Source: an uncultured candidatus Brocadiaceae bacterium (GTDB lineage Bacteria; Planctomycetota; UBA1135; UBA2386). Taken from it: DNA of 64,000 nucleotides. Shown here one piece after another: positions 2,590 through 60,882 of the stretch. Position 1 is the stretch's first letter. Each line of letters opens with the position of its first letter. Made by a program: the position numbers and the translations under genes. The notes under the pieces are model-generated. The model did no database searches, was not told the origin of the DNA, and worked only from the letters and a program-made list of their open reading frames with translations. Location of the stretch: NCBI GenBank assembly GCA_964538915.1, contig CAZIFB010000009.1, forward strand, positions 51,506 through 115,505. Direction: 5' to 3'.

Positions 2590-5310
2590 TCAGAGTCGTG
2601 ATGTTCTGGCGGCACGCAGCCCAAGGCGCGAGTGGCGGAGCGCGGGCGAGAATTGGCCACGGGTTCCCGACTCCGCCATGACAGGATCGCCGTCCCAGCA
2701 GCCACCTCGGACACATCGGGAGACGGAGCCGCCAGCGGGGTCTGGTCGACGGCCATCGCCTACCCGCTCGGGCCCGTAGTCTGAGTGCTCGTCGAGGCAC
2801 CACTCCCAGAGGCTGCCGCCCATGTCGAACAGCCCTCGGCCGTTTGCCCTCCAAGAGCCCACGGGCAGCACCTGGTTGTGGTTCACGCCTTCGGCTGCCT
2901 CGATGGCCGCTCGGTCGTCGCCTGTCCACCAGTTCGTCGTTGTGCCCGCGCGAACCCCGTATTCCCACTGCAGCTCGCTCGGCAGTGTGAGTCCGTGTGC
3001 GCGGAGCACGGGCTCTGCATCGAGCCAGCTCACGCGCTCGACCGGCAAGGCAAGATCGTTCCGGGTCTTGCTGTCGCTCGGATTCTCGTCGGTCCAGCGA
3101 ACCCACTGGCCCTGTGTCACTTCGTACTTGCCGAGGAAGAACGGATCGAGTCGCACCGTGAGCCGCTTCTTCGCGCCTTCGTCGTCGGCGGGCGTGCCCT
3201 GGGGCAATGTGCCGCCCGGCAGCAGCACGAACACGATGCCCGTGTCTCCGGTGACCTTGATCCGCCCGTCCGGCTCGTGCGTCGGAATCGGCAGCGTCGC
3301 TGGGTCCTGCACGCCGTCCCACGCACTGCGCAGGTCGTAGAACTCCCACAGCTTCGACTGCGGGTTCATGCCGATCGGCACGAGGCCCCACACGTCTTCG
3401 TCGCGCAGCGGAATGTCCTGGCCCTTGTAGAGTTCGTTCGCGACGACCCCGTCGGCCCTCGCGATCGCCGCGCGCGCCTCGGCCCAAGTGTGCTTCGCGT
3501 TCGGGTGCGCGAGAGTCAGCGGACCAACGCTCTTCGCCCAACGGCCACGGCGTGCCATGTCCGGCACAAGCTTCTCGAGATCTGGAAGGCGCTCGAGGAG
3601 GTCTCGCAGGGACCTCTCGAGGAAGCGTTCCGCGGCGAGTGACGCAGCGTCGCCCGTCGTCGCACCAACCACCACACCATCGCGGTAGGTGACGGACCAG
3701 CTTCCTGCGCTGCGTTGGAGTGACCGGACCACGGCCGACGCATCCGCCTTCTTCTGCAGCAGGAAGGTCGCCCTCTCGAGCCAGTCTTCGATCAGCGCAA
3801 CTTGCTCAGGCGCCCCGGGCGTCAGCTCCGGCTCCGTCTCGAGCAGCCGCTCCAAGTCGACCACGAGGGAGAGCTGGTTGAACTGCGCAACCTTGCCCTC
3901 GACGAAGATCTTCTGCTCTTCCGCCTCCTCTCGCGCTGCGTTCGCGTCGCTGGCGTAGGTCGAGGTGCCGACGAGGCCGAGTACCAAGATGAGCGCCGTC
4001 GCCGCGAGGCTCGCCGCGAGCGCCTTGTTGCGGCGCACCCACAGATTCATCTCGACCAGCGCGCCGGTTCGGTACGCCTTCACCACGCGCTGCGCGAGGA
4101 AGGCGCGCAGGTCGTTCGACAGCTCCGTGACGCTCGCGAAGCGTTCCCCTCGATCGCGGGCCATCGCCTTCTCGACGATCGCCACCAGCTCCGCTGGCAC
4201 TCCCTTCCGCACGTCCTCGATGCGCTTGGGTGGGCCCTCGACGACGTCGTTCAGGATCCGGTACGCCGGCTGGCGCACGCCGGGCGTCACGTACGGTGCG
4301 CGCCCGGTCAGCAGCTCGTACATCATCGCGCCGATCGCGTAGACGTCGGCGCGCACGTCGAGCTCCTCGCTGCGCGCCTGCTCCGGCGGCATGTAGCTCG
4401 GCGTGCCGAGCTGCTGGCCGTCCATCGACACCACCGACGACGCGGTGTCGGTCTCCGCGTCGCGCCGTCGCGCCGACTCGATCTTCGACGCGCCGGTGCC
4501 GGGGTCCTTCGCGATGCGCAGGTCGTGGCGATCGGTCTGGCCGAGCACTTTGGCGAGGCCCCAGTCCATCACGTAGACCTCGCCGAAGCGGCCGACCATC
4601 ACGTTGCTCGGCTTGAGGTCGCGGTGCAGCACGCCCTTGTCGTGCGCGTAGGCCATCGTGTCGCAGACCTTCAGCACGACCTCGAGCGCGCGCGTGAGCG
4701 GCCACTGCTCGTGTCCCGCGAACGCGTCGGCGAACACGTCGCTCGCGGTGCGGCCCTTCACGAGGCGCATCGTGAAGTAGACCTTGCCCGTCGCGTCGAG
4801 ACCGAGTTCGTGCACCGGTACGACGCCCGGATGGTCGAGCTGGCTCGTGACCTGCGCTTCTTCGAGGAACCGCCCGAGCAGCTGGTTCGCGAGGCGCTTC
4901 TCGTCGTCGTCGCGCGGTGCCGCGCGTTCGAGGAGCACCTTCATCGCGACCCGGCGGTTCAGCAGGCGATCGTGGATTCGCAGCACGGCGCCCATGCCGC
5001 CCTTGCCGACCTCGGTCTCGAGCGCGAAGCGATCGACGTCGAGTTTCGGCGCCTTGCCCAGCTTCGCCAGCAGCTCGCCGGTCGCGGTCGACTGCACGCG
5101 CTCGCGTCCACCCGATGCGTCGCCGACGAGCGTCGCGTCGTCGTTCGTCGTCGAACGCAGCAGCGCCATCGCCTCCGCGGCGAGAGTCTCGTCCGGCGCG
5201 TTCGCTCGGAGGAACGCTTCACGCTCCCCGGGCGGCAGCGCGGTGGCGGCGGAGACCAGTTGCTGCAGCTTCGTCTGCCGCGAGCGGGAATCGTCGGCGT
5301 TGGCGGTCAT
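2590..5310 (-). CDS. Membrane Ser/Thr protein kinase with C-terminal FGE-sulfatase (C-type lectin fold) domain
   Basis: GKGGMG, VAMK, HRDLKPSN, DWG, GTPSYMPPEQ; one TM helix; FFLGKYEVTQGQW, LPSELQWEY, DMGGSLWEW, RGGCW, GLRAAR; start set at MTANADD. Confidence 0.9.
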   Translation of the reverse strand: MTANADDSRSRQTKLQQLVSAATALPPGEREAFLRANAPDETLAAEAMALLRSTTNDDATLVGDASGGRERVQSTATGELLAKLGKAPKLDVDRFALETEVGKGGMGAVLRIHDRLLNRRVAMKVLLERAAPRDDDEKRLANQLLGRFLEEAQVTSQLDHPGVVPVHELGLDATGKVYFTMRLVKGRTASDVFADAFAGHEQWPLTRALEVVLKVCDTMAYAHDKGVLHRDLKPSNVMVGRFGEVYVMDWGLAKVLGQTDRHDLRIAKDPGTGASKIESARRRDAETDTASSVVSMDGQQLGTPSYMPPEQARSEELDVRADVYAIGAMMYELLTGRAPYVTPGVRQPAYRILNDVVEGPPKRIEDVRKGVPAELVAIVEKAMARDRGERFASVTELSNDLRAFLAQRVVKAYRTGALVEMNLWVRRNKALAASLAATALILVLGLVGTSTYASDANAAREEAEEQKIFVEGKVAQFNQLSLVVDLERLLETEPELTPGAPEQVALIEDWLERATFLLQKKADASAVVRSLQRSAGSWSVTYRDGVVVGATTGDAASLAAERFLERSLRDLLERLPDLEKLVPDMARRGRWAKSVGPLTLAHPNAKHTWAEARAAIARADGVVANELYKGQDIPLRDEDVWGLVPIGMNPQSKLWEFYDLRSAWDGVQDPATLPIPTHEPDGRIKVTGDTGIVFVLLPGGTLPQGTPADDEGAKKRLTVRLDPFFLGKYEVTQGQWVRWTDENPSDSKTRNDLALPVERVSWLDAEPVLRAHGLTLPSELQWEYGVRAGTTTNWWTGDDRAAIEAAEGVNHNQVLPVGSWRANGRGLFDMGGSLWEWCLDEHSDYGPERVGDGRRPDPAGGSVSRCVRGGCWDGDPVMAESGTRGQFSPALRHSRLGLRAARTSRL

Positions 5311-5391
5311 GCCCTTCGTCGACCGGAAGTGTGGGGGCGGCGCTGCGCCGGGCAAGCCGCTTCCCCGGAAGGTGCGCTGGTCAGGTCCGGC

Positions 5392-13815: not shown

Positions 13816-14415
13816 ATGGCGGTTGTGCGGATTCTGGGCATCGACCCGGGGACACGTGTCGTCGGTTTCGGCTGCCTCGAGATCACGGTCGGCGCGCCGG
13901 CCCGGCCGTCGCGTGCGGCGCCGCTCGCGATGCGCGGCAGCAACGTTGTGTCGGCTGCGGCCTCGTCGGGGTCGGACCTCCGCTTCGTGGAAGCGGGTGT
14001 GCTTCGGCTCGGCGGCCGCGACACCGAGCTGGACCGCCGGCTCTTGTCGCTCGCGGAGCAGTTCCGGTCCCTGGTGGACCGGCTTCGGCCGACGCAGATC
14101 GCGCTCGAGGAGGCGTTCGCCGGCAAGAGCGCCCAGGCCGCGCTGCGGATCGGCGAGGCTCGCGGTGTCGTGATCGCCGAATCGGCGCGCAACGGGCTCG
14201 GCGTGCACCAGTTCGCGCCGGCTCGCGTGAAGCGGAGCGTCACGGGCAATGGTGCGGCGAGCAAGGAGACCGTTGCGGCGATGGTGGATCAGCTCGTGCT
14301 CGGTGGTCGAGGGTCCGTGGCGCGCGGCTTGCCGGCCGACGCTTCCGATGCGGTTGCGGTCGCCCTGGCACTCGTCGAGATGCAGCGGTCGCCGCTCCAG
14401 ATGCTCGGCGGCTGA
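13816..14415 (+). CDS. ruvC: Crossover junction endodeoxyribonuclease RuvC
   Basis: ILGIDPG, ALEEAF, GEARGV, VKRSVTGNGAASKE, DASDAVAVA; catalytic acidic residues intact. Confidence 0.93.
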   Translation: MAVVRILGIDPGTRVVGFGCLEITVGAPARPSRAAPLAMRGSNVVSAAASSGSDLRFVEAGVLRLGGRDTELDRRLLSLAEQFRSLVDRLRPTQIALEEAFAGKSAQAALRIGEARGVVIAESARNGLGVHQFAPARVKRSVTGNGAASKETVAAMVDQLVLGGRGSVARGLPADASDAVAVALALVEMQRSPLQMLGG

Positions 14416-14637: not shown

Positions 14638-15597
14638 ATGATCCGAGGTCCCGTTCTCCCACACATGCGCGAGGCGCTGTGGGCACTGGTCTCGGTTCGA
14701 CTCGACGTGATCGAGCGCGGCCTCGTCCTGGTCGCCGAGGGCATCGATTGCAGCGCCGGCCACGCCGGGCCGGTCGACGGTCTGGCGCGCGACGCGAACG
14801 GGGCACCGGTCCTGCTGCTCGTAGCGACGGACAACGACGGACTCCTGCCAGCTCGCACGATCGCGGCATGCGACTTCCTGCAGCGCGTCGGTGATGCGTT
14901 CGGGGCGGCCGTGCCGGAAGGCAACTTCTGCGCGGGGCGCACCGGTCGCGTGATCGTCGTTTCGGGCGACGGTGGACGCGTCGCGATCGAAACGCTGCGT
15001 CGGCTGCCGCTCTCCGGCCTCGAAGCGTGCCGGCTCGAGGCGTTCCGTATCGGCGGTGCCGAACGCTTCGCGGTCCGATGGCTGCGCGCTGGCAATGCCG
15101 GGGCGGCCGAGGACGTCGCCCCTGCTTTCGAAGTGCCAGCCGCGTGTCGATCGGCCTGGGATGCGCTCGAAGCCGTCGCTCGCCGCATCGATCCGGCGGT
15201 TGCCGTCGATGGAGGACGCTTCTCCCGCCGGATCACCTGGCGCGGCCGCCTGCTCGGTGAGGTCGTGGCCGTCGACGGGGAGCTGCGAGCACTCGGATCC
15301 GACGGCGTCGCGCGAGGTTTGACCGGCGACCGCGATGTGCGGTCGTTCGCGGACTCCCTCGTGCGGCGCCATGCGCAGTTCACGGGGCTTGCGCCCATCG
15401 CGGCGCCGCGCGAAGCGCAAGGGACCGGTTCGACCGATCGCCTGCGCCCGCAGCGTGTGGAGACGCTCCGCGAGTCGTTGCAGGCCATGCGGATCTCGAC
15501 CGAAGAACGCACTGCCCTGGCAACCGGAATCGGCGACGAACTCGAAGACGGCGGAGCGGCCGCCGTCGAGGACGCCGCGCCAGGGCAGAACGAGTAG
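14638..15597 (+). CDS. Hypothetical protein with degenerate NucS/PD-(D/E)xK-like N-terminal domain
   Basis: LDVIERGLVLV..G....GPVDGLARDANGAPVLL follows the NucS-like pattern but lacks ExK; start uncertain (14638 or 14665). Confidence 0.5.
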   Translation: MIRGPVLPHMREALWALVSVRLDVIERGLVLVAEGIDCSAGHAGPVDGLARDANGAPVLLLVATDNDGLLPARTIAACDFLQRVGDAFGAAVPEGNFCAGRTGRVIVVSGDGGRVAIETLRRLPLSGLEACRLEAFRIGGAERFAVRWLRAGNAGAAEDVAPAFEVPAACRSAWDALEAVARRIDPAVAVDGGRFSRRITWRGRLLGEVVAVDGELRALGSDGVARGLTGDRDVRSFADSLVRRHAQFTGLAPIAAPREAQGTGSTDRLRPQRVETLRESLQAMRISTEERTALATGIGDELEDGGAAAVEDAAPGQNE

Positions 15598-15641
15598 CGA
15601 TGTCACGCCGGTAGTCGGGCGTTTCACGCCCGAGGAGGTGC

Positions 15642-16535
15642 TTGGAGACCGATCTTGAGTCGCGGAAGCCCGGAGGCTTCCTCGGGCGACTGTTCCGCCG
15701 CTCGTCGGTGGGGCCGTTGATCGAGGCGGAGGCTGTCGTCGTCGCTTGTGCCAGTGGAAAGGGTGGGACCGGCAAGTCGTTCCTGACGACGAATCTCGCC
15801 ATCGCCCTGCACCGAGCCGGCCGCCGTGTCGCCGTGGTCGACTGCGACTTCGGGCTCGCGAACGCGCATCTGCTGTTCGGCGTGAATCCCCGCTTCTCGA
15901 TGCAGCATCTGCTCGAGGGGGGCGTGCCGCTCGAGGACGTGCTGTGCGAGACGCCGCACGGGCCGACGCTGATCGCCGGCGGCTCCGGAGTCGTGAGCAT
16001 GGCGGAACTCGGAGCGCGCCACATGCAGGTCCTGGCGCGCGCGCTGCACCGTGTCGCGATGTCGTTCGACTACGTCCTGCTCGATTGCCCCGCCGGGCTC
16101 GCGCCGCAGTCGATGGTCACGGTCCTCGCGGCGGATCACATCGTCCTGGTGACCAATCCCGAGATCGCTGCTCTCACCGATGCTTATGCGCTGATCAAGT
16201 GCCTGGCGAGGCAGCCGCGTCATCCCGATCTCGGGATCGTCGTGAATCGTGTCTCGACGCCGGGCCTCGGACGCACGACGTTCGATCGGCTGGCCGAGGT
16301 TTCCCGCCGTTTTGCCGCATGCTCGATCCACTACGTCGGGGAGGTGCCCGAGGATCCTGCCGTGACGCAGCGGCGACTGGGGCAGCCGCCCGTTCTCGTG
16401 TCGTTGGCCGAATGTCCCACCGCGAAGGCGATCCTCTCGATCGAAGCGCAGATCGAAGCGGTGACCCATCCCGTCCGCACCTCTCGGCGGGCGGGGGTCG
16501 AAGAGAGGATGATGGAACAGCTTCGACGTTGGTGA
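15642..16535 (+). CDS. MinD/ParA family ATPase, FlhG/FleN-like
   Basis: SGKGGTGKS deviant Walker A, VDCDFGLANAHLLFG, LLDCPAG, PEIAALTDAYALIK; TTG start with GAGGAGG SD. Confidence 0.85.
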   Translation: METDLESRKPGGFLGRLFRRSSVGPLIEAEAVVVACASGKGGTGKSFLTTNLAIALHRAGRRVAVVDCDFGLANAHLLFGVNPRFSMQHLLEGGVPLEDVLCETPHGPTLIAGGSGVVSMAELGARHMQVLARALHRVAMSFDYVLLDCPAGLAPQSMVTVLAADHIVLVTNPEIAALTDAYALIKCLARQPRHPDLGIVVNRVSTPGLGRTTFDRLAEVSRRFAACSIHYVGEVPEDPAVTQRRLGQPPVLVSLAECPTAKAILSIEAQIEAVTHPVRTSRRAGVEERMMEQLRRW

Positions 16536-16885
16536 GCCCCGGGCGCCGGCGCGTGCTTCTGAGCGTCTGGGCGTTCCTGGTGTTCGCCCTGGCCGTGCGC
16601 GCGCTGGCTAGAGGGCTCTTGCCCGCCGACGCGTCCGGCGCCGTGGAACTGCGTCCCGTTCTCGTCGACGTCAATCGGGCAAGTGTCGGGGACCTGATGT
16701 CCTTGCCCTCGATCGGTGCGGTTCGAGCGGAGGCCATCGTCCTCGAGCGGATTCGCCGTGGTCCGTTCCGTTCTCTCGACGACATCGACCGTGTGGATGG
16801 CCTGGGTCCCGGAGCCTGCGAGAGTCTGCGTGACCTGGTGACGTTCGGAGGCCTCGGCGAGGCCTCGGGTCGTCCGCGAGACTGA
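16532..16885 (+). CDS. ComEA-family helix-hairpin-helix DNA-binding protein
   Basis: TM helix, then VDVNRAS..DLMSLPSIG..RAEAI..R...GPFRSLDDIDRVDGLG; GTG overlaps the upstream stop. Confidence 0.85.
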   Translation: MSPGRRRVLLSVWAFLVFALAVRALARGLLPADASGAVELRPVLVDVNRASVGDLMSLPSIGAVRAEAIVLERIRRGPFRSLDDIDRVDGLGPGACESLRDLVTFGGLGEASGRPRD

Positions 16886-27804: not shown

Positions 27805-30348
27805 TCAGCGAAACGGGCGCAGCCCCGCGTCGATCTCCCGCTGCAACCGCGCCTTCAGCTCCTCGTCCCCGAGTGCCCGCTGGATGGCGACCCGGCGGAG
27901 CACCGCGCTGACCCATGCCGTTGCCCGCTCGTCGAGTCCGGTGGGCGGCAACAGGTAGGCGAGGTTCGCCAGCTGGTACGCGTCGTCGGGTTCTTCCAGC
28001 AGCGTGGCCGCGAAGGGTCCGATCGCCGCCAGCTTGTCCGACGACGTGAGCGCGAATGCGATTGCACGCCGTTGTCGACCGAGCACCGAGTTGCGGGCGC
28101 GCAAGGCCTCGTCGTACGCCGCGACCGCGCGGACCGCGGCTTCGCGCGAACGCTCGGGGTTCGTCTCCACCAGCGCCATCGCTTCGTCGAGCGCGATGCT
28201 GCCGACGAGGTCGGGCTGCATCCACTCTTCGCCGCGATGACCCGTCTTCGCGAGACCGTTCGCGATCTCGAGTGCTTTGGCGAGGTCGCCGCGCCGCTGC
28301 GCCAGTCGGGCGAGGCCCTGCTGCGTGTTCCACGCGAACGGCCGCAGGCGAAGGGCCTCCCGAAAGTGCCGCTCGGCGTCGTCGAGGCGGCCGAGATTCA
28401 GGAACGAGACGCCGAGGTTCTGGTGCGGCCCGTGGCGCTCGGGTCGGAGTTCGAGCGATCGCTCCAGTTCGGGAACGGCCTGCGCGTAGCGTTTCTGCAG
28501 GATCAGCGCGAGGCCGCGCAGCGCGCACGTGCGGGCCGTGGGCCGGCCGTAGATCGTCTCCAACGCGATCGTCTCGTCGTGCAGACGCTGCTGGACTTCC
28601 GGGCGACCGCCCGCGAGTTCTGCCCACGCGAGCAACCGCAGATCGCGGGCCGGCAAGTACGAGTCCGCCGCGCGGCTCAGCAGCTGTTCGGCACGCGTCG
28701 CGAAGCCCTTCACGTGCCGCGCTCGCAGTTCGTGGAAGCCGGCGACGTAGCAATCCTCCGGCGTCACCGGCGCCGGCAGACCGCTCGTGTCCACCGCCAT
28801 CGCGCCCGTGCGATCGGGGAGGAGACGGAGATACCGGTCGGCAAGTGCGCGCAGGTATTCGCTCCGGCCGTCCGCTGCGATCGTGTGCAGATCGTCCGCC
28901 GCGCCGTCGCGGTCGCCGAGGTCGAGACGAAGGCACGCGCGCCAGAGTCGTACGGGCAGGTCGGACTCGTCCAGTGCGAGGATGTCGTCGAGGAGCCGGA
29001 TCGCGTTGCGGTGCTCCTCGTGCAACGCCGCGAGCACGCGCTCGTCCGGCCATCCCTCGATCGCGAGCACGGAAGGCAGCGTCGCGTAGAGCCGCTGCTT
29101 CTCTGCGGCGGTCTGTTCGCTCCGCTGTCGCAGCAGGACGGGGCCGGCGATGGCGACGGTCGCGATGGCGAGAACGAGTGCGGCGACGGCGACGAGGCGT
29201 GCAGGCGTCCGGCGCCATTGGCGCCATCGGCGCTCGAAGGCTCCGATCGGCCGGGCCTGCACGGGCTGGTGGGCGAGGAAGCGATCGAGGTCCGCCGCCA
29301 GCTCGCTGGCCGTCGGATAACGCGAGGACGGATCGCGTTCGAGGCAGCGCTCGACGATCGCCCGCAGGTCGCGCGGCAACGTGGGGGCCGTCGTCGCGAG
29401 CGGCGTGGGTTCCTGGGTCGGCAGCGCCGCGATGACCGTCGCAGCGTCGCCCTCGTACGGCGGGCGTCCGGCGAGCAGGTGGTACATCGTCGCGCCGAGG
29501 CCATAGACGTCGAGCGTGGGTGACGCGGTGCCCGAACTCCCCGCTCGCACCTGCTCCGGCGGCATGTACCACGGTGTTCCGAGCGTCGTCTGGGTCGCGG
29601 TCAGGCGTTCGTCGTTCGCGCGCGACGCGATGCCGAAGTCGAGCAGCACCGGTCGATCGTCGCTCGTCACGAAGATGTTCGAGGGCTTCACGTCGCGATG
29701 CACCAGATCGCGGTCGTGAGCGGCGGCGAGGCCGCGTGCGACGTCGCGAGCCCAACGTGCGACCACGCGGGTCCAGGGCATCTCGTTCGTTCGGATGCCG
29801 AGCGTCGTCAGCGCCGTGTCCGGGTCCGAACCCGCCGCAGCCTCGAGGATCGTCGCGAGCGTCGCTCCCGCGAGCAGTTCGAGGACGACGAAGTGGATGC
29901 CCTCGGTGGTGCGGCCGCGGTCGAACACCGCGACGACGTTGCGGTGCTGGAGCGCAGCCAGTGCTTCGCCTTCGCGGCGGAAGCGCTGCTCGGCCTGCTC
30001 GTCACGGAACAGCCGCGCATCGAGGATCTTCACCGCCACGTCGCGCTGCAGTTCCTGGTCGCTCGCGCGGTACACGACGCCCATCGCGCCGCGGCCGAGG
30101 CAGGCGAGCAGCCGGTAGCGGCCGGCGAGCAGCAGCCCCGCCAGCGGATCCTCGCGAAGCGCTTCACCCTGAAGGAGCGGCAGCTCGGCGGCCAGACCCA
30201 GGACCTCCGCGAGTGGACGCGCGAGGTGCGGGTGGTCGCGGCACAACGCCGCCGGATCCACGGCCTCGCCGGCGTCCATCTTCGCGAGCGCCTGCCGCAC
30301 GTAGGCGACGAGGCGTTCCTGGTTCTCCGGATCGCGGGCGATGGTCAC
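27805..30348 (-). CDS. Membrane Ser/Thr protein kinase with TPR repeats
   Basis: GRGAMG, VAVK, HRDVKPSN, DFG, GTPWYMPPEQ; TM helix; TPR-like PELERSLELRP...HQNLG..A..HFREALRLRP. Confidence 0.9.
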   Translation of the reverse strand: MTIARDPENQERLVAYVRQALAKMDAGEAVDPAALCRDHPHLARPLAEVLGLAAELPLLQGEALREDPLAGLLLAGRYRLLACLGRGAMGVVYRASDQELQRDVAVKILDARLFRDEQAEQRFRREGEALAALQHRNVVAVFDRGRTTEGIHFVVLELLAGATLATILEAAAGSDPDTALTTLGIRTNEMPWTRVVARWARDVARGLAAAHDRDLVHRDVKPSNIFVTSDDRPVLLDFGIASRANDERLTATQTTLGTPWYMPPEQVRAGSSGTASPTLDVYGLGATMYHLLAGRPPYEGDAATVIAALPTQEPTPLATTAPTLPRDLRAIVERCLERDPSSRYPTASELAADLDRFLAHQPVQARPIGAFERRWRQWRRTPARLVAVAALVLAIATVAIAGPVLLRQRSEQTAAEKQRLYATLPSVLAIEGWPDERVLAALHEEHRNAIRLLDDILALDESDLPVRLWRACLRLDLGDRDGAADDLHTIAADGRSEYLRALADRYLRLLPDRTGAMAVDTSGLPAPVTPEDCYVAGFHELRARHVKGFATRAEQLLSRAADSYLPARDLRLLAWAELAGGRPEVQQRLHDETIALETIYGRPTARTCALRGLALILQKRYAQAVPELERSLELRPERHGPHQNLGVSFLNLGRLDDAERHFREALRLRPFAWNTQQGLARLAQRRGDLAKALEIANGLAKTGHRGEEWMQPDLVGSIALDEAMALVETNPERSREAAVRAVAAYDEALRARNSVLGRQRRAIAFALTSSDKLAAIGPFAATLLEEPDDAYQLANLAYLLPPTGLDERATAWVSAVLRRVAIQRALGDEELKARLQREIDAGLRPFR

Positions 30349-30378
30349 GGTGGGCGGATGGTAGCCCGCCCCGCGCCG

Positions 30379-42610: not shown

Positions 42611-42751
42611 GCGGCTCGCTCGAGCGGGCGGCCGCGCCGATGCCGCGCGATGCGCGGCAGCCCGGTTCCCGGTGCTGGTGGCGAGGGGCGCCGGTGGATT
42701 CTCGGGTTCTTTCCGTACATTCCGGCCAGCCCGGGCATCCACCGAGCGCCG

Positions 42752-45700
42752 ATGCTCCCGACCGACGTCCAGCTCTTCCGCCGCTACGCGACGGCCGCCG
42801 ATCGCGCCGCACTGGACGAGCTGTTCGGCCGCCACTACGCGGCCGTGCTCCGCCTCGCCGCGAAGCTCCTGCCCGAGCCCGCCGACGCCGCGGATGTCGC
42901 TCAGTCGACGTTTCTCGCCGCCATCCGCGCCGGCCGAGACGCGCTCCCGACCGATTCCTTCCGCGCGTGGCTGCTCGGGATCGCCGTCAACGAGGTGCGG
43001 CAGTTTCTCCGCACGCGACGCCGCCAGCGTCGCGATCCGCTGGCCGAGGTCGTGCGTGCTGCTGCGGACGACCTCGTTCCGGACGCCGCCGCGCGCCGCG
43101 AATTCGAACGCGCGCTGGAAGACTCGCTGCGTCTCCTGCCCCAGCACCTGAAAGAACCCGTAGCGCTCCACTTCTACGAAGCGCTGCCGCTCGCCGACGT
43201 AGCCGCCGTGCTGGGCCTGCCGAAGAGCACCGTGCAGACCCGCATCACCGCCGCGGTCGAGCGTGTGCGCCGGTCCCTGCGCCGCGCGGGCCACGCCGCC
43301 CTCGTGCCGTTGTTCGACGCCCGCATCACCATCCCCGCGCCCGCGAACGCCGCCGCCGGCCTCAGCCATCTGCTCGCCTGGACCATGTCCACCAAGCTCC
43401 CCGTCGTCGCCGGCGTCGCGATCCTCGTTGCCGGACTCTTCGCCCTCGTCGCGATCTGGCCTCCTGCACCGGCACCCGAACAACGCACCAGCGCGAGCAC
43501 GCCGGACGCCGCGAGTGCATCACCGCTGCTCGTGGTCGGCGACCAGGTGGCACCGAGCCGGGTGCCCGACGCGCTCACCGCCGCCGGTGACGTCGCGCGC
43601 GAAGTCTTCGGTCTGGTCCTGCGCGAAGGCGGCGAACCGATCGTCGGGGCGACCGTGCGCCTGTTCGACTATGCCGCCGACCGCACCGAAGACGCGCTCA
43701 CGGACTCCGGCGGCCGTTTCCGCTTCGCCAGCACCCGGGATCGCGACGGCGTTTTCCACCTCGTCGCCGAGAAGTCCGGCAGCGGTCGCCGCACGGTCGC
43801 CGACGTGATCGCGTCCCTGCAACCGCTGCGCTGCGTCCTCCAGTCGGACCTGACGATCCGCGGCCGCGTCGTGGATGCCGTCGGCGGCGGACCCATCGCG
43901 GCGTTCACGGTCGAGGCGGTGCGCCTGCCGTTCCAGCGCGAAGCCGACTGGGATCCGGCCCTCGTGCTGCATCGCCAGAGTCTGCCCGCGAGGCTGCTCG
44001 TCGATCGGCGCGCCGAAGTGGTCGACCCGGACGGCCGCTTCGAACTGCCCGACCTCGAGACGGGCCGCTACCTGCTCGTCGTCACCACCGAGGGTCGCCA
44101 GCCGGTGTCCTTCGCAGCGGGTGGTCGCTCCTGGGATCGCTTCGCCGGCGTCGAGGCGCTGCCGCGCGCGGCGGCAACCGAGCACACCATCGTGCTACCC
44201 GTGCCCGGCCACATCGTCGTGCAGGCCGTGGAGGCGGCGAACGGCACCCCGATCGCCGGCGCCACCGTGCGTCTGGACTGCGCGTTCGGCGATCTGGCGT
44301 TCCCGTGCACCGCGACGACGACCGATGGCGACGGACGTGCCGTCGTGTCCGTCGCGCTGGATGCGCGCGGCGGGATCGAGGACGTCGCGCTGACCGTGAG
44401 TGCGCCGGGCCTTGCACCGGCGAGCACCAGCTTCAGCGGCCAGGAGAACGGTTTCACCATCACCCTCGCACTCGCGCGCCCGGCGGCGCTGCACGGCCGC
44501 GTGCTCGGTGCCGATGGCGCGCCGGTGTCCGGCGCCGCGATCCTGGTCGAACGCGTCGTCGATCGCACGCTGCTCCGGCGGGCGCGCAGCGACGCCGACG
44601 GGCGCTACGCCATCGCCGGCCTGCACGCCGCGAGTGCAACCACGCTGCACTGCCTGTCGCCGGCACTCGACCACGTCACCGCCACACTGCCGCTGAAGCT
44701 CGAGGACGGCGAGACGCGCTACCTCGACATCGACCTGCGCGGAGCCGCCGGCGTCGTCGGGAGAGTGGCGGTCGGCGGTGTTCAGGCGGCCGGCGCGCTG
44801 GTCGCCATGCACGCCGAACGCGGTGGCATCCGCGTCGACTGCACGACGCGGCGCGACGGTGCGTACGCGTTCGCCGGCCTGCCGGAGGGCCGTTACGAAA
44901 TGACGGTGACCACGGAATGGCTCGGGCGGCAGCTCGCGTCGCGGACACCGATCGAGGTCGGCCTCGCCATGCAGGAGCGCGACTTCGATTTCGCGCAACG
45001 CGTGACCGGCCGCGTCGTCGCCGTGGCGGCGGGCGGTCGGGAGGCGCCGCAGGCGCCGGGGGCCGAGGTCGTGGCGACGCACCTCACCGATCGGACCACG
45101 ATCGAGGTCGACGCGGAGGACGACGGCAGCTTCGCGGTGCTGCTCGCGGCGCCCGGCCCATGGGAACTGCACGCGCAGCGCGGCGACGAGACGTTCCCGG
45201 TGCGCCCGCAGCGGATCGAGGTCCGCGACGGGGCGGCGATCGACGGTGTCGAACTCCTGTTCGCCTCGGATCCCGCCGACGGTCGCATCGAGGTGCGTTT
45301 CGTCGACGCGAAGAGCGGCGCGCCCGTCAGCGGCGAGCTGCGTTTCTCGCACGGTCGCTCGTGGACGGCCGCGAGCTTCGAAGACGGTGTGTACGTCGAG
45401 GAGAAGGCGCTGCTCGGTCGCTACCGCTTCACGGCGACGACGGACGAGCACCGGCCGACGCCCTTCGAAGTCGAACTGCTGCCGGGGCAGCGGGAAGTTG
45501 TCTTGTCGGTGCCGCTCGTTGCGGCGAGCGAGGTCGAGATCGTCGAGGTCGCGGCGGGCAGCGCGGCTCACCGCGCGGGCCTTCGTGCGGGCGATCGGCC
45601 GCGCCGCTACGGCGCAACGGCGATCCACAGCATCGCCGGGCTGCGCGCCGCGATCGCAGCGCACCCGGGGCCGACGACTCTCGCGGTCCTTCGCGACGGC

Positions 45701-45763
45701 GCGGAACTCGCCGTCCCGGTGCCGGGCGGCGCGCTCGGCATCCAGGTCGAGAACGTTCGCTGA
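42752..45763 (+). CDS. ECF sigma factor fused to a TM helix, carboxypeptidase-regulatory-like repeats and a C-terminal PDZ domain
   Basis: AADVAQSTFL, FRAWLLGIAVN, DVAAVLGLPKSTVQTRI; TM VVAGVAILVAGLFALVAIW; repeated G.V....G.P(I/V).GA.V; VEVAAGSAAHRAGLRAGD. Confidence 0.85.
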   Translation: MLPTDVQLFRRYATAADRAALDELFGRHYAAVLRLAAKLLPEPADAADVAQSTFLAAIRAGRDALPTDSFRAWLLGIAVNEVRQFLRTRRRQRRDPLAEVVRAAADDLVPDAAARREFERALEDSLRLLPQHLKEPVALHFYEALPLADVAAVLGLPKSTVQTRITAAVERVRRSLRRAGHAALVPLFDARITIPAPANAAAGLSHLLAWTMSTKLPVVAGVAILVAGLFALVAIWPPAPAPEQRTSASTPDAASASPLLVVGDQVAPSRVPDALTAAGDVAREVFGLVLREGGEPIVGATVRLFDYAADRTEDALTDSGGRFRFASTRDRDGVFHLVAEKSGSGRRTVADVIASLQPLRCVLQSDLTIRGRVVDAVGGGPIAAFTVEAVRLPFQREADWDPALVLHRQSLPARLLVDRRAEVVDPDGRFELPDLETGRYLLVVTTEGRQPVSFAAGGRSWDRFAGVEALPRAAATEHTIVLPVPGHIVVQAVEAANGTPIAGATVRLDCAFGDLAFPCTATTTDGDGRAVVSVALDARGGIEDVALTVSAPGLAPASTSFSGQENGFTITLALARPAALHGRVLGADGAPVSGAAILVERVVDRTLLRRARSDADGRYAIAGLHAASATTLHCLSPALDHVTATLPLKLEDGETRYLDIDLRGAAGVVGRVAVGGVQAAGALVAMHAERGGIRVDCTTRRDGAYAFAGLPEGRYEMTVTTEWLGRQLASRTPIEVGLAMQERDFDFAQRVTGRVVAVAAGGREAPQAPGAEVVATHLTDRTTIEVDAEDDGSFAVLLAAPGPWELHAQRGDETFPVRPQRIEVRDGAAIDGVELLFASDPADGRIEVRFVDAKSGAPVSGELRFSHGRSWTAASFEDGVYVEEKALLGRYRFTATTDEHRPTPFEVELLPGQREVVLSVPLVAASEVEIVEVAAGSAAHRAGLRAGDRPRRYGATAIHSIAGLRAAIAAHPGPTTLAVLRDGAELAVPVPGGALGIQVENVR

Positions 45764-50307: not shown

Positions 50308-52938
50308 TCAGCGCTGCTCGCGCAGCCGTGCGAGCGCCGCGCGCGCCTTCTCACGCGAAGCGGGGGGCACCTTTTCCTCGTCACGCAACGCCGCTTCGAG
50401 CAGTTCGATCGCCTGCTGCGCGTGACCGTTCGCCGCCTCGGCTCGGCCCCAGAGAGCGCGTTCGCGAGGCGTGATGGACTTGTCCACTGCGCGCGCCTGC
50501 TCTACCGCCCTCGCCGCCCCCGTCGCGTCCATCGGGCGAACCTCGAGGCAGACTTCGGCGAGGCGCCACCACGGGCCGTCGTTGTCCGGAGCGATGCGCG
50601 TCGCTCGTTCGGCGCTCTCGCGCGCGACGTCCGGGAGTTCGGCCTCGAGGGCCCGCAGGGCCAGCGTCATGCACCTCGCGTAGTCGTCGGCCGCCGCGAA
50701 CGTGTTGGCGCGCACCTCCGCGACGAACGCCTCCTCGACTCGATCGAGGCGCTTCAGGCTGCGCGCCATGCATGCGTACGGAGCCGACTGGGTGGGGGCG
50801 AGCCTGGCTGCTGTTTCGAACTGGGCGAGTGCCCCTTCCTCGTCGCTCAGTTCGTGCAGCACGAGGCCGAGGTTCTGCGCATGCTTCCAGTCGCCTCCGT
50901 CCAGTTCTCGTGCGCGCTCCAGCGGGGCGCGGGCTTCGGCCGGCTTGCCGGTTTCCATGAGAATCGCACCCTCCAGCCCGTGCGCGGAACCCATCTTCGG
51001 ATCGACGGCGATCGCCCGGCGCGCAGCCTCGACGGCGCCGTTCGGGTCCTTCGCCGATCGCCGCCACCGGGCGAGCGTTTCCCACGCTCGTGCGTTGTCG
51101 GGTTGCAGTTCGAGGGCGCGCTCGAACGCCGCGATCGCCTCCGCGGTCCGGTTCGCGCGCGCCAGGTAGTGTCCGCGGGCGAGAAGGAAGCGCGGATCCG
51201 TGTCGAGTCCGGTCGCCGATACCGCCGCGAGGCCGCGTTCGATCGGCGCCACCGCCGACCCGAACGCGTACAGCAGCTGGAAGCCGCGGGTGTCGGGAAA
51301 GAACTGCTCGTACGCCGCGAGTGCGTTCGCGAACGCGTCTGCGTCGTTGGCGCGCGCGGCGGCGATGGACCACTGCAGCAACAACCACGCGCGCGGCTTC
51401 GGGGAGAGTGCGACGGCCCGGCCGTACCACTTCGCGGCGTGATGGTAGAAGATCGTGCCGCGGTGGTACGACTTCTCCTGTTCGGCCGCGATGTGGCCGA
51501 GCACCGCACACTCGAGCGTCGTCGACGCCTCCACGTCCTCGAAGCGGAACGGGAGGTCCTTGCCGCCGCCGTCGAGCAGCAGCCGCACGAGTTCGTGGAT
51601 CCTGGTCCCGGCGAAGGCGCTGAGCATCGTTCCTGCCTTCTGCGGTGTGTCCGTCCATGTCCACAGGGCACACATCGCGAGGCGGACCTCGAGATCCGTC
51701 GGATCGCCGCTCCAGGGTTCCAGCTCGCGCAGACCGTCGCGCGGCCGTTCGTCGTTGAGCGCCACCCACGCGGTCGTCAACGCGCGCTCGCGCTGCTCCT
51801 CGCGTTCGGCGCGCGCCGCAGCCTCGATGCGCGGCGCGTTCGCCCACAGGTAGCCGCCGACGACGGCCAGCAACGGAACGCCGATCGCGAGCAGCGCGGC
51901 GGCGAGTGCGCGCCAGGGTTCGCGCCGTGCCCAGCGGCGCAGACGCTCGGTCGCGGTCGGCAGACGCGCCGCGACCGGCGCACCCTGCTGCCACGCCCGC
52001 AGGTCGGCCAGGAACGCGACCGCGCTGGGGTATCGCCGCACCGGGTCCTTCTCGAGGGCGCGCGCGCAGATCGCGGCGAGGTCGTCGTCGATCCCCGTCG
52101 CGCCGCGCAAGCCGGCCGGGTCCTGCGTGAGGATCGCGTGCAGCGTGGCCGTCGCGGTTTCCGAGGCGAACGGATGGCGCCCGATGAGCAGTTCGGCGAG
52201 CACGACGCCCGTCGACCAGACGTCGACGCGCGCATCCACCTTCTGCCCCTGGATCTGCTCCGGCGCCGCGTAGTCCAGCGTGCCGAGGAACCCGCCTTCG
52301 ACGGTGACGGTCGGCGAATGCACGTCGCGGGCGAGGCCGAAGTCGGTCAGCACCACCTGGCCGTCGGTGCGCACGAGCACGTTCGCCGGCTTGACGTCGC
52401 GGTGCACGAGGCCGGTGGCGTGTGCGTGCTGCAACGCGTCGAGGACGCGCGCTGCGAGTTCGACGGCGGCACGCGGCTCGCGGAAACGTTCGCGGCAGCG
52501 GTAGAGCGGTTGGCCTTCCACCAGCTCCATCGCGAACCAGTTCACGTCGCCGTCGCGACCCACTCCGAACACCTCGACGATGCCCGGGTGGCGCAGCTTC
52601 GCGGTCGCGGCCGCCTCGCGGTGGAAGCGTGCGATCGCGGCGGAGTCGGCGGTGAGCGCGGGCGCGAGGATCTTCAGCGCTACCTTGCGACCCAGCGACT
52701 GCTGCCAAGCGGAGTACACGACGCCCATGCCGCCGCGGCCGAGTTCGGCGTCGATGCGGAAGTCGCCGATCACCCGCGTCGTCGTGGCGCCGTCGCGTTC
52801 CGCGAGCATGGGCTCCAGCAGTTCGCGCAGCTCGGGGTGCGCCGCGAGGAGGGCGTCGTCGTCGCGCGTGCTGGTCTCGACGTGAGCGAGCCACACCTCG
52901 AGGGCTCGTTCGAGGCGCGAGGAATCGGCGCGGCTCAT
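50308..52938 (-). CDS. Membrane Ser/Thr protein kinase with TPR repeats
   Basis: GRGGMG, VALK, HRDVKPAN, DFG, GTLDYAAPEQ; TM helix; multiple TPRs (AFERALELQPDNARAW); ATG overlaps the sigma TGA. Confidence 0.9.
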   Translation of the reverse strand: MSRADSSRLERALEVWLAHVETSTRDDDALLAAHPELRELLEPMLAERDGATTTRVIGDFRIDAELGRGGMGVVYSAWQQSLGRKVALKILAPALTADSAAIARFHREAAATAKLRHPGIVEVFGVGRDGDVNWFAMELVEGQPLYRCRERFREPRAAVELAARVLDALQHAHATGLVHRDVKPANVLVRTDGQVVLTDFGLARDVHSPTVTVEGGFLGTLDYAAPEQIQGQKVDARVDVWSTGVVLAELLIGRHPFASETATATLHAILTQDPAGLRGATGIDDDLAAICARALEKDPVRRYPSAVAFLADLRAWQQGAPVAARLPTATERLRRWARREPWRALAAALLAIGVPLLAVVGGYLWANAPRIEAAARAEREEQRERALTTAWVALNDERPRDGLRELEPWSGDPTDLEVRLAMCALWTWTDTPQKAGTMLSAFAGTRIHELVRLLLDGGGKDLPFRFEDVEASTTLECAVLGHIAAEQEKSYHRGTIFYHHAAKWYGRAVALSPKPRAWLLLQWSIAAARANDADAFANALAAYEQFFPDTRGFQLLYAFGSAVAPIERGLAAVSATGLDTDPRFLLARGHYLARANRTAEAIAAFERALELQPDNARAWETLARWRRSAKDPNGAVEAARRAIAVDPKMGSAHGLEGAILMETGKPAEARAPLERARELDGGDWKHAQNLGLVLHELSDEEGALAQFETAARLAPTQSAPYACMARSLKRLDRVEEAFVAEVRANTFAAADDYARCMTLALRALEAELPDVARESAERATRIAPDNDGPWWRLAEVCLEVRPMDATGAARAVEQARAVDKSITPRERALWGRAEAANGHAQQAIELLEAALRDEEKVPPASREKARAALARLREQR

Positions 52939-53564
52939 GTGCCCGGCACCTCGGGCACGTCGCCCGAACGCAGCGATCGCATGATGTCCGCCAGTCGTGC
53001 AACTGCGCGCACCCAGCGCATCCGCACCGCGTTCGCCGTCATGCCGAACTCTTCGCCGAGATGGACGAACGAGCGGTCCTCGAATTCGCGCGCGACGACG
53101 AGGCGACGATCCTCGGCGTCGAGCAGTTCGAGACCGAGCCGTACCCACTCCCGCAGTTCGCCGCGGCTCGCGTCGCGGCTGGGCGTGGCGCTCGTGGCGA
53201 GCGCGGGATCGAGCGCGAGCACGCTCTCGCTCGGCAACGGCGCATCGCGGCCGAGGTCGCGGCGCTTCGCGCGGTACCAGTCGTTGCGGTCGCGGAGGGT
53301 GTTCTCGACGACTCTCGCCAGGAGGCTGCGGAACTGCACGCCGTCGCGGACCTGGAAGCGTGGACCGTCGCGCAGGAACTCGAGCACCGCGGCCTGCAGG
53401 TAGTCCTCCGGCTCCTCGCGCTGGCGGAGGAAGGCGCCGACGCGGCGCTCGAGGTGCTCGCGAAGCCAGGGCAGGTGCGCTTCGACCAGCGCGGGCAGCG
53501 CCGCCGGGTCGCCTGCGTGCCACCGCCGCAGCAGCTCCTGGGTCGGTTCGGCGTCAGCCGGCAT
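52935..53564 (-). CDS. ECF RNA polymerase sigma factor (planctomycete kinase-associated type)
   Basis: [34 protein letters not shown], region 4 [22 protein letters not shown]. Confidence 0.9.
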
Positions 53565-60175: not shown

Positions 60176-60234
60176 CCGCAACACCCTAGCGCCGGCCGCT
60201 GGCGACGCCGAGACCGTCTGCTCATGATCCGCGA

Positions 60235-60882
60235 ATGGAAGACGACTCGCGCCGCGACGAGCGGGCCGAAGGTGACCACGGAACGACGTCGCACCATCTG
60301 CGCGGCGCGGTCGCCGGGGACATGACCGCGCTCGACGAACTCGTGCGCCGCGTGACGCCGCTGCTCCTGTCCGCGGCGTCGTACCGCCTTCGCAGCCTCG
60401 CGGGTCGCGCCTGCGAACCGATGGATCTGGTGCAGGACGTCTGGATGCGCACGCTGCCACGGCTCGGCCAGCTCCGCGAACGCGACGGCCGGCTCACGCC
60501 CGTGCTGCTGGCCTGGCTCGGAACGACGTTGCGCCGGCGCGCACGCGATCTGCTCGAGACCGCGCTGCGGCGGCATCGCACGGTGCCACTGGCGGACGCG
60601 GACGACGCGCTGCCCGAAGTTCCGGAAGCGACGCGCGGCGTCGTGTCGCGCGTGGTGTACGCCGAGAACCGCGGCCTGGTCGACACTGCCCTGGAAGCGC
60701 TCTCGGACTCGGATCGTGAGATCGTGCTGCTGCGGGGAGTCGAGCAGGTCCCCGTCGTCGAGGTCGCCACGCTGCTCGCGATCACTCCGAGCGCGGTGAA
60801 GATGCGCTACCTGCGTGCGCTCCAGCACCTTCGCGAGGAGGTGCCCCGTTCGATCTTCGACGAACTCGATGACGCGGACTGA
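60235..60882 (+). CDS. ECF RNA polymerase sigma factor
   Basis: AVAGD..ALDEL, EPMDLVQDVW, region 4 LSDSDREIVLLR...VEVATLLAITPSAVKMRYLRAL. Confidence 0.9.
   Translation: MEDDSRRDERAEGDHGTTSHHLRGAVAGDMTALDELVRRVTPLLLSAASYRLRSLAGRACEPMDLVQDVWMRTLPRLGQLRERDGRLTPVLLAWLGTTLRRRARDLLETALRRHRTVPLADADDALPEVPEATRGVVSRVVYAENRGLVDTALEALSDSDREIVLLRGVEQVPVVEVATLLAITPSAVKMRYLRALQHLREEVPRSIFDELDDAD

Follow-up and report, generated by a model that had tools for sequence, protein, structure and literature searches.

The MinD and FlhG ATPases bind the membrane as ATP dimers via an amphipathic helix at the C-terminus, as described in three reviews (PMC11407121, PMC12826062, and PMC7226244). FlhG is further defined, in PMC12826062, by an N-terminal DQAxxLR enhancer helix that activates FlhF together with a membrane-targeting sequence (MTS) at the C-terminus. 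PMC11407121 also gives a working rule for the family, in which a C-terminal amphipathic helix denotes the membrane and a basic surface denotes the nucleoid, such that the matrix is read from the C-terminus. Here, we describe a related ATPase from an uncultured candidatus Brocadiaceae bacterium, encoded within a 64,000-nt stretch of DNA (the window; contig CAZIFB010000009.1, positions 51,506 to 115,505 of the forward strand). The gene (nt 15642-16535 of the window, forward strand) encodes a MinD/FlhG-like deviant-Walker-A ATPase of 297 a.a., with the coding translation taken as nt 15642-16532 and followed by a TGA stop codon. An earlier sequence-only reading had noted a membrane-targeting helix ahead of the Walker A motif, and translation of the gene does place RKPGGFLGRLFRR, a cationic amphipathic motif, at residues 8-20 (nt 15663-15701, forward strand). 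We favor, with a probability of roughly 0.5, the reading that this is a non-flagellar FlhG/FleN-like ATPase carrying its membrane-targeting amphipathic helix on a flexible N-terminal extension instead of on the C-terminal tail.

Start codon and translation of the N-terminal motif

The upstream gene ends at nt 15597, and the ATPase gene opens at a TTG codon (nt 15642-15644, forward strand), which is the first ATG, GTG, or TTG past an in-frame upstream stop. The sequence immediately 5′ of this codon is AGGAGGTGC, and a Shine-Dalgarno-like AGGAGGT (nt 15633-15639, forward strand) can be read two bases 5′ of the start. Two later in-frame start codons are present in the open reading frame (ORF), a GTG at nt 15708 (residue 23) and a TTG at nt 15717 (residue 26), and gene callers began 14 of 121 homologous proteins near the Walker A motif. 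These features would suit a motif lying outside the protein, with residue 23 or 26 as the initiation point and the conservation ahead of it reflecting a 5′ leader; several observations make this highly improbable.

The start codon was surveyed in 34 orthologous DNA loci (the window and 33 others), with a conserved 'xEPDL' position anchored in 28. The start-equivalent codon in these 28 was TTG (18 loci), GTG (7), or ATG (1), and never CTG or another leucine codon; in the remaining two (L013 and L015), the pattern had been anchored wrongly and a TTG lies at the expected distance in each. All six unanchored loci also have a start codon 5′ of the motif. A Shine-Dalgarno sequence (GAGGTG or GAGGAG/GAGGAGG) lies a few bases 5′ of the start in the orthologous loci, and in several its frame differs from that of the start, indicating a ribosome-binding site rather than coding sequence. 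In many orthologues, moreover, the stretch from the motif to the first beta-strand contains no start codon.

At the protein level, a homologue search returned 655 matches at E<=1e-10 from 7,999 scored candidates, from which the best 120 of the 655 were used (60-98% identity, length ~300 a.a.). Where named, these are called 'P-loop NTPase', 'AAA family ATPase', or 'MinD/ParA family protein' (NCBI), or 'FlhG' (JGI and one NCBI record), and nearly all of the NCBI-named homologues come from metagenome-assembled genomes of Planctomycetota. At least 30 residues before Walker A, together with the motif region, were found in 107 of the 121 proteins (the query and the best 120 of 655), the other 14 being shorter gene calls or fragments. 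The 107 long proteins begin M/L/V-EPDL-x5-GRGFLRRWFRR or a near variant. In the 26 loci where the motif could be anchored, codons for the invariant arginine vary between CGG, CGA, CGC, and CGT, the motif phenylalanine is TTC in 14 and TTT in 10, and L, W, I, or F fills the central hydrophobic column; the motif residues thus persist despite synonymous codon changes. Given that the start codon is kept, with a Shine-Dalgarno sequence in front, and that the peptide is kept at the protein level, these comparisons indicate that TTG 15642 is the real start and that the long form is the protein. They likewise indicate that the motif is translated and under protein-level selection. The downstream start that the sequence-only reading had named as a refuting outcome was, hence, not borne out, while the survey of orthologues found the motif conserved and matching the pattern of the canonical FlhG C-terminal membrane tail.

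Fold, clade, and distribution of the ATPase

The window protein scores above the cut-offs of the Pfam families ParA, CbiA, and AAA_31, and carries the deviant Walker A SGKGGTGKS at residues 38-46 (nt 15753-15779, forward strand) with signature lysine K40. In an alignment of 73 sequences, K40, K45, S46, D67, D69, and D148 are invariant, comprising the signature lysine and the catalytic and dimerisation residues. The deviant Walker A with its signature lysine, the switch I/II aspartates, and a MinD/Soj-type fold place the protein in the ParA/MinD superfamily. By sequence, the best PDB matches were FleN (2.1e-38) and FlhG (1.7e-33), followed by archaeal and bacterial MinD. An AlphaFold2 (AF2) model built from the 73-row alignment gave a predicted local distance difference test score (pLDDT) of 87.3, and was aligned with VIA-align to FlhG 4rz2_A (Z 32.9, root mean square deviation 1.9, 255 residues aligned) and FleN 5j1j_B (Z 32.3); MinD structures followed at Z 27-28, with FlhG, FleN, MinD, and Soj spanning Z 25-33.

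The assignment to MinD/FlhG in the sequence-only reading stands for the FlhG-like fold and clade but not for MinD, as the best NCBIfam matches fall below their cut-offs (minD_arch TIGR01969, 153.6 bits vs. 201.75; minD_bact TIGR01968, 110.6 vs. 212.9). For the tree, a whole-library HMMER search gave 150 representatives, of which 141 rows were usable (FastTree with SH-like support). The window protein lies in a clade of 44 rows (support 99), all with the Walker A GKGGTGK[ST], and one representative cluster of this clade is labelled Acidobacteriota by its source. Neither the window protein nor any of the 44 clade rows has DQAxxLR; it occurs in 50 of the 141 rows, every one outside the clade.

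The organism also encodes flagellar genes elsewhere in its genome, which is 90.64% complete and so leaves some room for missed genes. A cluster on contig C65 holds flhA (817.9 bits), a FlhF-like gene, and a MinD-like gene, with fliP/fliR/flhB-like ORFs alongside, and FliM is encoded as well. The MinD-like gene of this cluster, presumed to be the flagellar FlhG (G000:C65:12823-13605, locus L082), has AKGGVGKT, an upstream in-frame LDAQAKGL that is not a clean DQAxxLR, and no obvious amphipathic C-terminal tail. Given this separate flhA-flhF-flhG cluster, the absence of DQAxxLR, and the sub-cut-off MinD scores, the window gene is a non-flagellar FlhG/FleN-like paralogue of the ParA/MinD superfamily, neither MinD nor FlhG proper. 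The sequence-only reading had stressed that no min or flagellar gene is nearby; this holds for the window, where none of the 35 ORFs scanned matched a min or flagellar family, but not for the genome. It had also noted that many Planctomycetota divide without Min/FtsZ; here, FtsZ and MinE each gave no match in the 90.64%-complete genome and MinC_C matched only below threshold (26.2 bits vs. a cut-off of 33.2).

Of 401 genomes of the phylum, 159 were matched at E<=1e-25. Those alignments, among the matches listed, that start before query residue 15 and reach residue 275 or beyond belong to family f1, in which all five genomes, plus the window's own, were matched at 54-100% identity. Most f1 orthologues align from residues 1-14 to 275-297, the G224 orthologue starting at residue 28. 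Distant positional orthologues, recognized from an ispF-ruvC-X-ATPase-nadC order, show MARFFDRILRPFQR or MAKFFDRIFKPFQR (L033 and L034) and GSVFRRLFGERG (L036) at the N-terminus, and an N-terminal basic/aromatic segment of different sequence is, hence, kept in distant positional orthologues (MARFFDRILRPFQR, GSVFRRLFGERG, and GGLIRRLLARVG). Order-level relatives have N-termini such as MLSRFQFKRFRSFRR and MLNTRFDFSRLRTLTRFL, and end in SFYERARKALR.

The organism's own genome encodes two further relatives. One, a second ATPase from this clade (G000:C6:124854-125966, locus L080 5855-6967; 46% identical), has the N-terminus GLGPRGRGLFGRLLDGL and the C-terminus GIEARFRQHRLFL, and lies beside GAF and FHA-GGDEF-like ORFs (named by eye). 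This paralogue (43-47% identity) is conserved in all six family-f1 genomes searched, the window's own included. A fourth MinD/FlhG-like gene (G000:C92:9618-10754, locus L081; 35% identical), on a 12.7-kb contig, showed no DQAxxLR or terminal amphipathic motif, and is followed by an HU/IHF-like ORF with a sigma-factor fragment nearby.

The N-terminal motif and the C-terminal helix

The motif at residues 8-20 has a hydrophobic moment (µH) of 0.64, a net charge of +3, and four bulky hydrophobic residues. Its presumed anchor core (residues ~11-20, FLGRLFRR) is hydrophobic at positions i, i+1, i+4, and i+5 with arginine elsewhere, and across the 73 sequences R16 is invariant and L14 at least 90% conserved. 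The helical amphipathicity that the sequence-only reading had proposed to check is present by µH, but does not separate the two termini. Shuffling the 14-residue N-terminal segment matched the µH of the motif in 334 of 10,000 trials, so amphipathicity alone is modest evidence and conservation the strong part. The AF2 model gives residues 1-20 a pLDDT of 41-50 and leaves them undocked on the monomer, as would be expected in such a model for a helix induced by lipid.

To compare the termini, the heptad G[FL][FLIM]x[RK][LIMWV][FLIVM] was scored in the N-extension, core, and C-tail. Among the f1-like proteins (the best 120 of 655), it occurred in the N-extension of 80 and not once in the core (28,786 residues) or the C-tail. 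The pattern was reversed in the 50 DQAxxLR canonical FlhG representatives (N-extension 0, core 0, C-tail 7), while the 52 T-class representatives gave 5, 0, and 0, and the 43 other representatives 0, 0, and 3, respectively. Interfacial energy (ΔG), taken as the best 9-mer on the Wimley-White scale, was −2.09 for the window N motif. In the f1-like proteins, the median was −1.42 in the N-extension (<= −1 in 65/107) and +0.23 in the C-tail (<= −1 in 2/107); in canonical FlhG, it was +1.48 in the N-extension (<= −1 in 4/49) and −1.93 in the C-tail (<= −1 in 37/49). This reversal of interfacial energy between the N- and C-termini is the best support that the sequences lend to a candidate N-terminal anchor.

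The other end of the protein is not simply vacated. A conserved C-terminal helix, GVEERMMEQLRRW (nt 16494-16532, forward strand), sits where the canonical C-terminal MTS sits, as judged by the alignment and the AF2 model, in which it spans residues 286-296 at a pLDDT of ~90. Its consensus, GVEARMLAQIRRW, is near-invariant; over the 73 sequences, R289 is invariant, and conservation reaches at least 90% at G285, M290, Q293, R295, R296, and W297. For the last 11 residues, µH is 0.64, net charge 0, and the interfacial ΔG unfavorable. The model aligned up to residue 297 against residue 287 of 4rz2_A, while 4rz3_A aligned only to chain residue 264; in the FlhG structure, the C-terminal stretch of 4rz2_A is reportedly the MTS folded back on the monomer. 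The sequence-only reading held that the C-terminus lacks a membrane motif, which stands for the heptad (found in none of the 120 C-tails) but overlooks that the C-terminus is itself a conserved helix. Its further notion of a 'permuted' anchor overstates the case: the candidate anchor motif moved to, or arose at, the N-terminus, and the older helix at the C-terminus persisted with an altered character.

Given this retained helix, both termini might contribute, with the C helix released upon dimerisation to bind the membrane as in FlhG and the N helix serving as an auxiliary anchor, either strengthening binding or sensing curvature or charge. The C helix is indeed modelled at the FlhG C-terminal end position, its µH of 0.64 sets M, L/I, and W on one face, and 2 of the 15 N-positive members of the wider clade are amphipathic-cationic at both ends. 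However, the C-tail carries no net charge, its interfacial ΔG falls to −1 or below in just the two proteins noted above, and a near-invariant tail ending in RRW looks more like a specific protein contact. We consider this two-anchor arrangement unlikely.

Several points weigh against an N-terminal lipid anchor. The 107 f1-like proteins are close kin rather than independent observations. The µH is equal at both ends of the window protein (0.64 each), and a HeliQuest-type D factor was rejected as charge-driven and unspecific, exceeding 1.34 in 24 of 49 canonical FlhG N-extensions. In the wider GKGGTGK[ST] clade, only 20 of 40 representatives have a better interfacial energy in the N-extension than in the C-tail, and the invariance of R16 exceeds what a pure lipid anchor needs. 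The organism's own ParB (G000:C41:9982-10911) begins MVDRRLGRGLDFFLSGG, including RRLGRGLDFFL, and its N-terminal peptide has an interfacial score of −1.99, as good as that of the anchor motif. Finally, a ParB-like [KR]LGRG[LF] occurs by pattern at the same N-terminal place in 6 of the 44 clade members.

These last points would suit a different role, in which the N-terminal peptide is a protein contact of the ParB, MinE, or activator type, rather than a lipid anchor, either docking on its own or a neighboring ATPase dimer to tune hydrolysis or mimicking ParB towards the chromosomal ParA. The partners of ParA/MinD ATPases mostly engage via N-terminal peptides, according to PMC11407121, which lends some probability to a contact peptide in cis. 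The LGRG peptides of the clade include RRLGRGLRDF, KLGRGLASM, VLGRGLKDL, TLGRGLQDL, and SLGRGFSEL, with RKLGRGMSQLV added by eye; the N-terminus of the in-genome paralogue (GLGPRGRGLFGRLLDGL) points the same way, and the f1 consensus GRGFLRR, with its invariant R16, shares GRG[LF]. However, PGG replaces the family's GRG in the window protein, which does not keep the ParB-equivalent arginine, and the hydrophobic face varies freely between L, W, I, and F. A charge of +3 to +5, the aromatics, and an exact match to canonical C-tails suit a lipid anchor better, and the AF2 monomer leaves the peptide undocked. A complex prediction of two ATPase cores (residues 31-297) with ATP and Mg against the peptide (residues 1-30) gave a score of 0.00 and a mark of 0.32, which speaks neither for nor against binding. 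Overall, we hold a contact peptide to be the less probable explanation, albeit the most serious competitor of the lipid anchor.

The LGRG-type clade members noted were P0154, P0164, P0176, P0189, P0209, P0240, and P0246, several of which also keep a C-terminal [FY]FxRLR tail, while P0255 carries LGLGRGLLERL in its C-tail. An amphipathic-cationic 11-mer was found in the N-extension of 15/41 and the C-tail of 6/44 members of the 44-row clade, compared to 5/50 and 36/50, respectively, in the DQAxxLR class and 3/32 and 21/47 in the remaining rows. Complementarity between N- and C-terminal anchors was not seen within the wider clade using either the 11-mer or the interfacial scores. The gene following the organism's own ParA (contig C5) is not ParB, which was found on C41. 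The hydrophobic moment alone fails to tell the N motif from the C helix or from core surface helices, with residues 214-224 forming the top window. A Tat or other signal peptide, considered for the RR pairs, was dismissed upon reading the sequence, as these are followed not by a hydrophobic h-region but by the first strand of the cytoplasmic ATPase.

Returning to the N-terminal lipid anchor, a mechanism can be proposed by analogy to MinD and FlhG. ATP-dependent dimerisation via the signature lysine would pair two weak N-terminal helices, such that the dimer binds an anionic membrane, and hydrolysis of ATP would send the monomer back to the cytoplasm. The ancestral C-terminal helix, no longer membrane-favorable, would remain packed on the ATPase body as a structural or regulatory latch. 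This suggests a rewired membrane switch in bacteria without the usual division-site machinery.

A conserved clade with an N-terminal membrane-type helix would be misclassified by a rule that reads the C-terminus, and its source names at present are FlhG or generic P-loop NTPase. We found no description in the literature, with most subscription journals lying outside the coverage, of a natural MinD/ParA ATPase whose membrane-targeting sequence is N-terminal. If the N helix is the anchor, the clade would provide a natural experiment on whether the site of anchor attachment matters to the MinD/FlhG nucleotide switch, and would reveal the role of the retained C-terminal helix once free of lipid binding.

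Gene neighborhood and comparison with known systems

The ATPase gene lies in the order ruvC, up319, ATPase, a ComEA-like gene, nadC, a HATPase_c_2 gene, and a VanZ-like gene. The ruvC gene (nt 13816-14415, forward strand; Pfam RuvC 4.6e-30) is conserved in position in L002-L036 and L090. Synteny matches for 'ispD' and 'purB' mark homologous position only; purB was confirmed by Pfam, while the ispD label rests on ORF reading alone. Downstream of the ATPase, here and in the orthologous loci, is a ComEA-like gene encoding a transmembrane helix and an HHH_3 domain (nt 16532-16885, forward strand; HHH_3 2.7e-13). Its start candidates are at nt 16529 and 16532, and the GTG at 16532 is the likely start, overlapping the ATPase stop as GTGA. 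Judging by the sequence, this overlap suggests that translation of a membrane DNA-binding protein is coupled to that of the ATPase.

The conserved upstream partner gene, up319 (nt 14638-15597, forward strand), encodes 319 a.a. from the start MIRGPVLP, which was set from the orthologues. An up319 homologue lies directly upstream of the ATPase in 28 loci by tblastn. A profile built from 26 orthologues and searched in 401 genomes (E<=1e-5) matched 11, including all five f1 genomes and the window's own. The two genes adjoin in G000, G044, G119, G157, and G224, and lie on separate contigs in G371, at a contig end. No up319 paralogue was found in the organism's genome, and no up319-like neighbor was found for the C6 paralogue. 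In the order-level locus L090, an up319-like protein was recognized by eye only, the profile giving no match there at E<=1e-5.

While up319 has no Pfam or NCBIfam match, its AF2 model (pLDDT 84.9) shows a NucS-like domain of PD-(D/E)xK fold followed by another alpha/beta domain and, past a disordered linker, a conserved peptide at the C-terminus. The NucS nuclease domain 2vld_B aligns with residues 10-136 (Z 10.3, 22% identity), Foldseek returned 5gke/2vld at ~1e-3, and residues 166-250 form a YjbR/frataxin-like domain (Z 8.5). No lysine is invariant in the up319 alignment, and nuclease activity is, therefore, doubtful on the sequence. The most conserved stretch of the protein is instead LRSxLAAARLSPEEYSALG, past the disordered linker, in which E290, A293, and L294 are invariant. 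The window's own copy, LRESLQAMRISTEERTALA (nt 15466-15522, forward strand), reads RISTEERTALA and is degenerate at the hydrophobic position; variants in distant loci include RLSDEEMAAFFG and RLSDDEVVSLG, as well as ILTEEEIQAF, seen by eye only.

The EIDAL motif of FliM binds CheY, as stated in PMC6946799, and PMC12826062 and PMC7226244 describe the FliM N-terminus as the contact by which FlhG engages FliM/FliN. The organism's own FliM starts ..ILSNEEIDTLL, and the resemblance of the up319 C-terminal peptide to this EIDAL motif can be taken as a lead. The NucS-like up319 would be a likely partner or cargo of the ATPase, engaging it via its C-terminal EIDAL-like peptide as the FliM N-terminus engages FlhG. 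Given a DNA-enzyme-like partner, in planctomycetes in which neither FtsZ nor MinE was found, the ATPase is a concrete candidate for a role in the spatial organisation of this phylum. More speculatively, the N-anchored ATPase, the NucS-like protein with its EIDAL-like peptide, and perhaps the ComEA-like membrane DNA binder, beside ruvC, could form an undescribed membrane-DNA positioning module in this FtsZ- and Min-less planctomycete lineage. In such a module, a re-used FlhG-derived switch would tether DNA or a DNA-processing complex to the membrane or division site, or position it there; this has a small probability, in our estimate.

Elsewhere in the window, four large Ser/Thr protein kinases are encoded within the 64 kb on the reverse strand (nt 2593-5391, 27808-30378, 50311-53553, and 57317-60493), of which two are fusions with FGE-sulfatase domains and the other two with TPR repeats. 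A single open frame of 1,050 a.a. (nt 42611-45760, forward strand) combines ECF-type sigma-70 regions 2/4 with repeated CarboxypepD_reg domains, and may represent a sigma/anti-sigma-like fusion or two genes read together.

Compared with systems already described, the N-terminal helix recalls MreB, Noc, MinE, and FtsY, in which short N-terminal basic/aromatic helices serve as reversible membrane anchors. These families are unrelated to the window protein, and none is a ParA/MinD ATPase. In ParB, as here, a short N-terminal peptide runs from a GRGL-type segment into hydrophobics; however, the ParB peptide sits on the partner rather than on the ATPase, and the window motif lacks the arginine of the ParB GRG and is far more cationic.

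MinD (E. coli PDB 3Q9L; archaeal PDB 1HYQ) shares the superfamily and the fold (Z 27-28), and the window GFLGRLFRR resembles the E. coli MinD C-tail as quoted in the sequence-only reading. The MinD motif is C-terminal, whereas that of the window protein is at the opposite end, and MinD acts with MinC and MinE on FtsZ, while MinE and FtsZ were not found in the window organism's genome and MinC_C was sub-threshold. The best matches by both sequence and fold remain FlhG (YlxH) of Geobacillus thermodenitrificans (PDB 4RZ2/4RZ3) and FleN of Pseudomonas aeruginosa (PDB 5J1J), with which the window protein shares the deviant Walker A, the switch residues, and a C-terminal helix at the same place. Unlike these two proteins, it has no DQAxxLR enhancer helix, reads GKGGTGKS rather than GKGGVGK[ST] at Walker A, and is encoded outside a flagellar cluster, where FlhG and FleN lie with flhF/flhA. 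The window protein differs from both, above all, in its termini, with the membrane-type motif placed at the N-terminus and the C-terminal helix polar and near-invariant.

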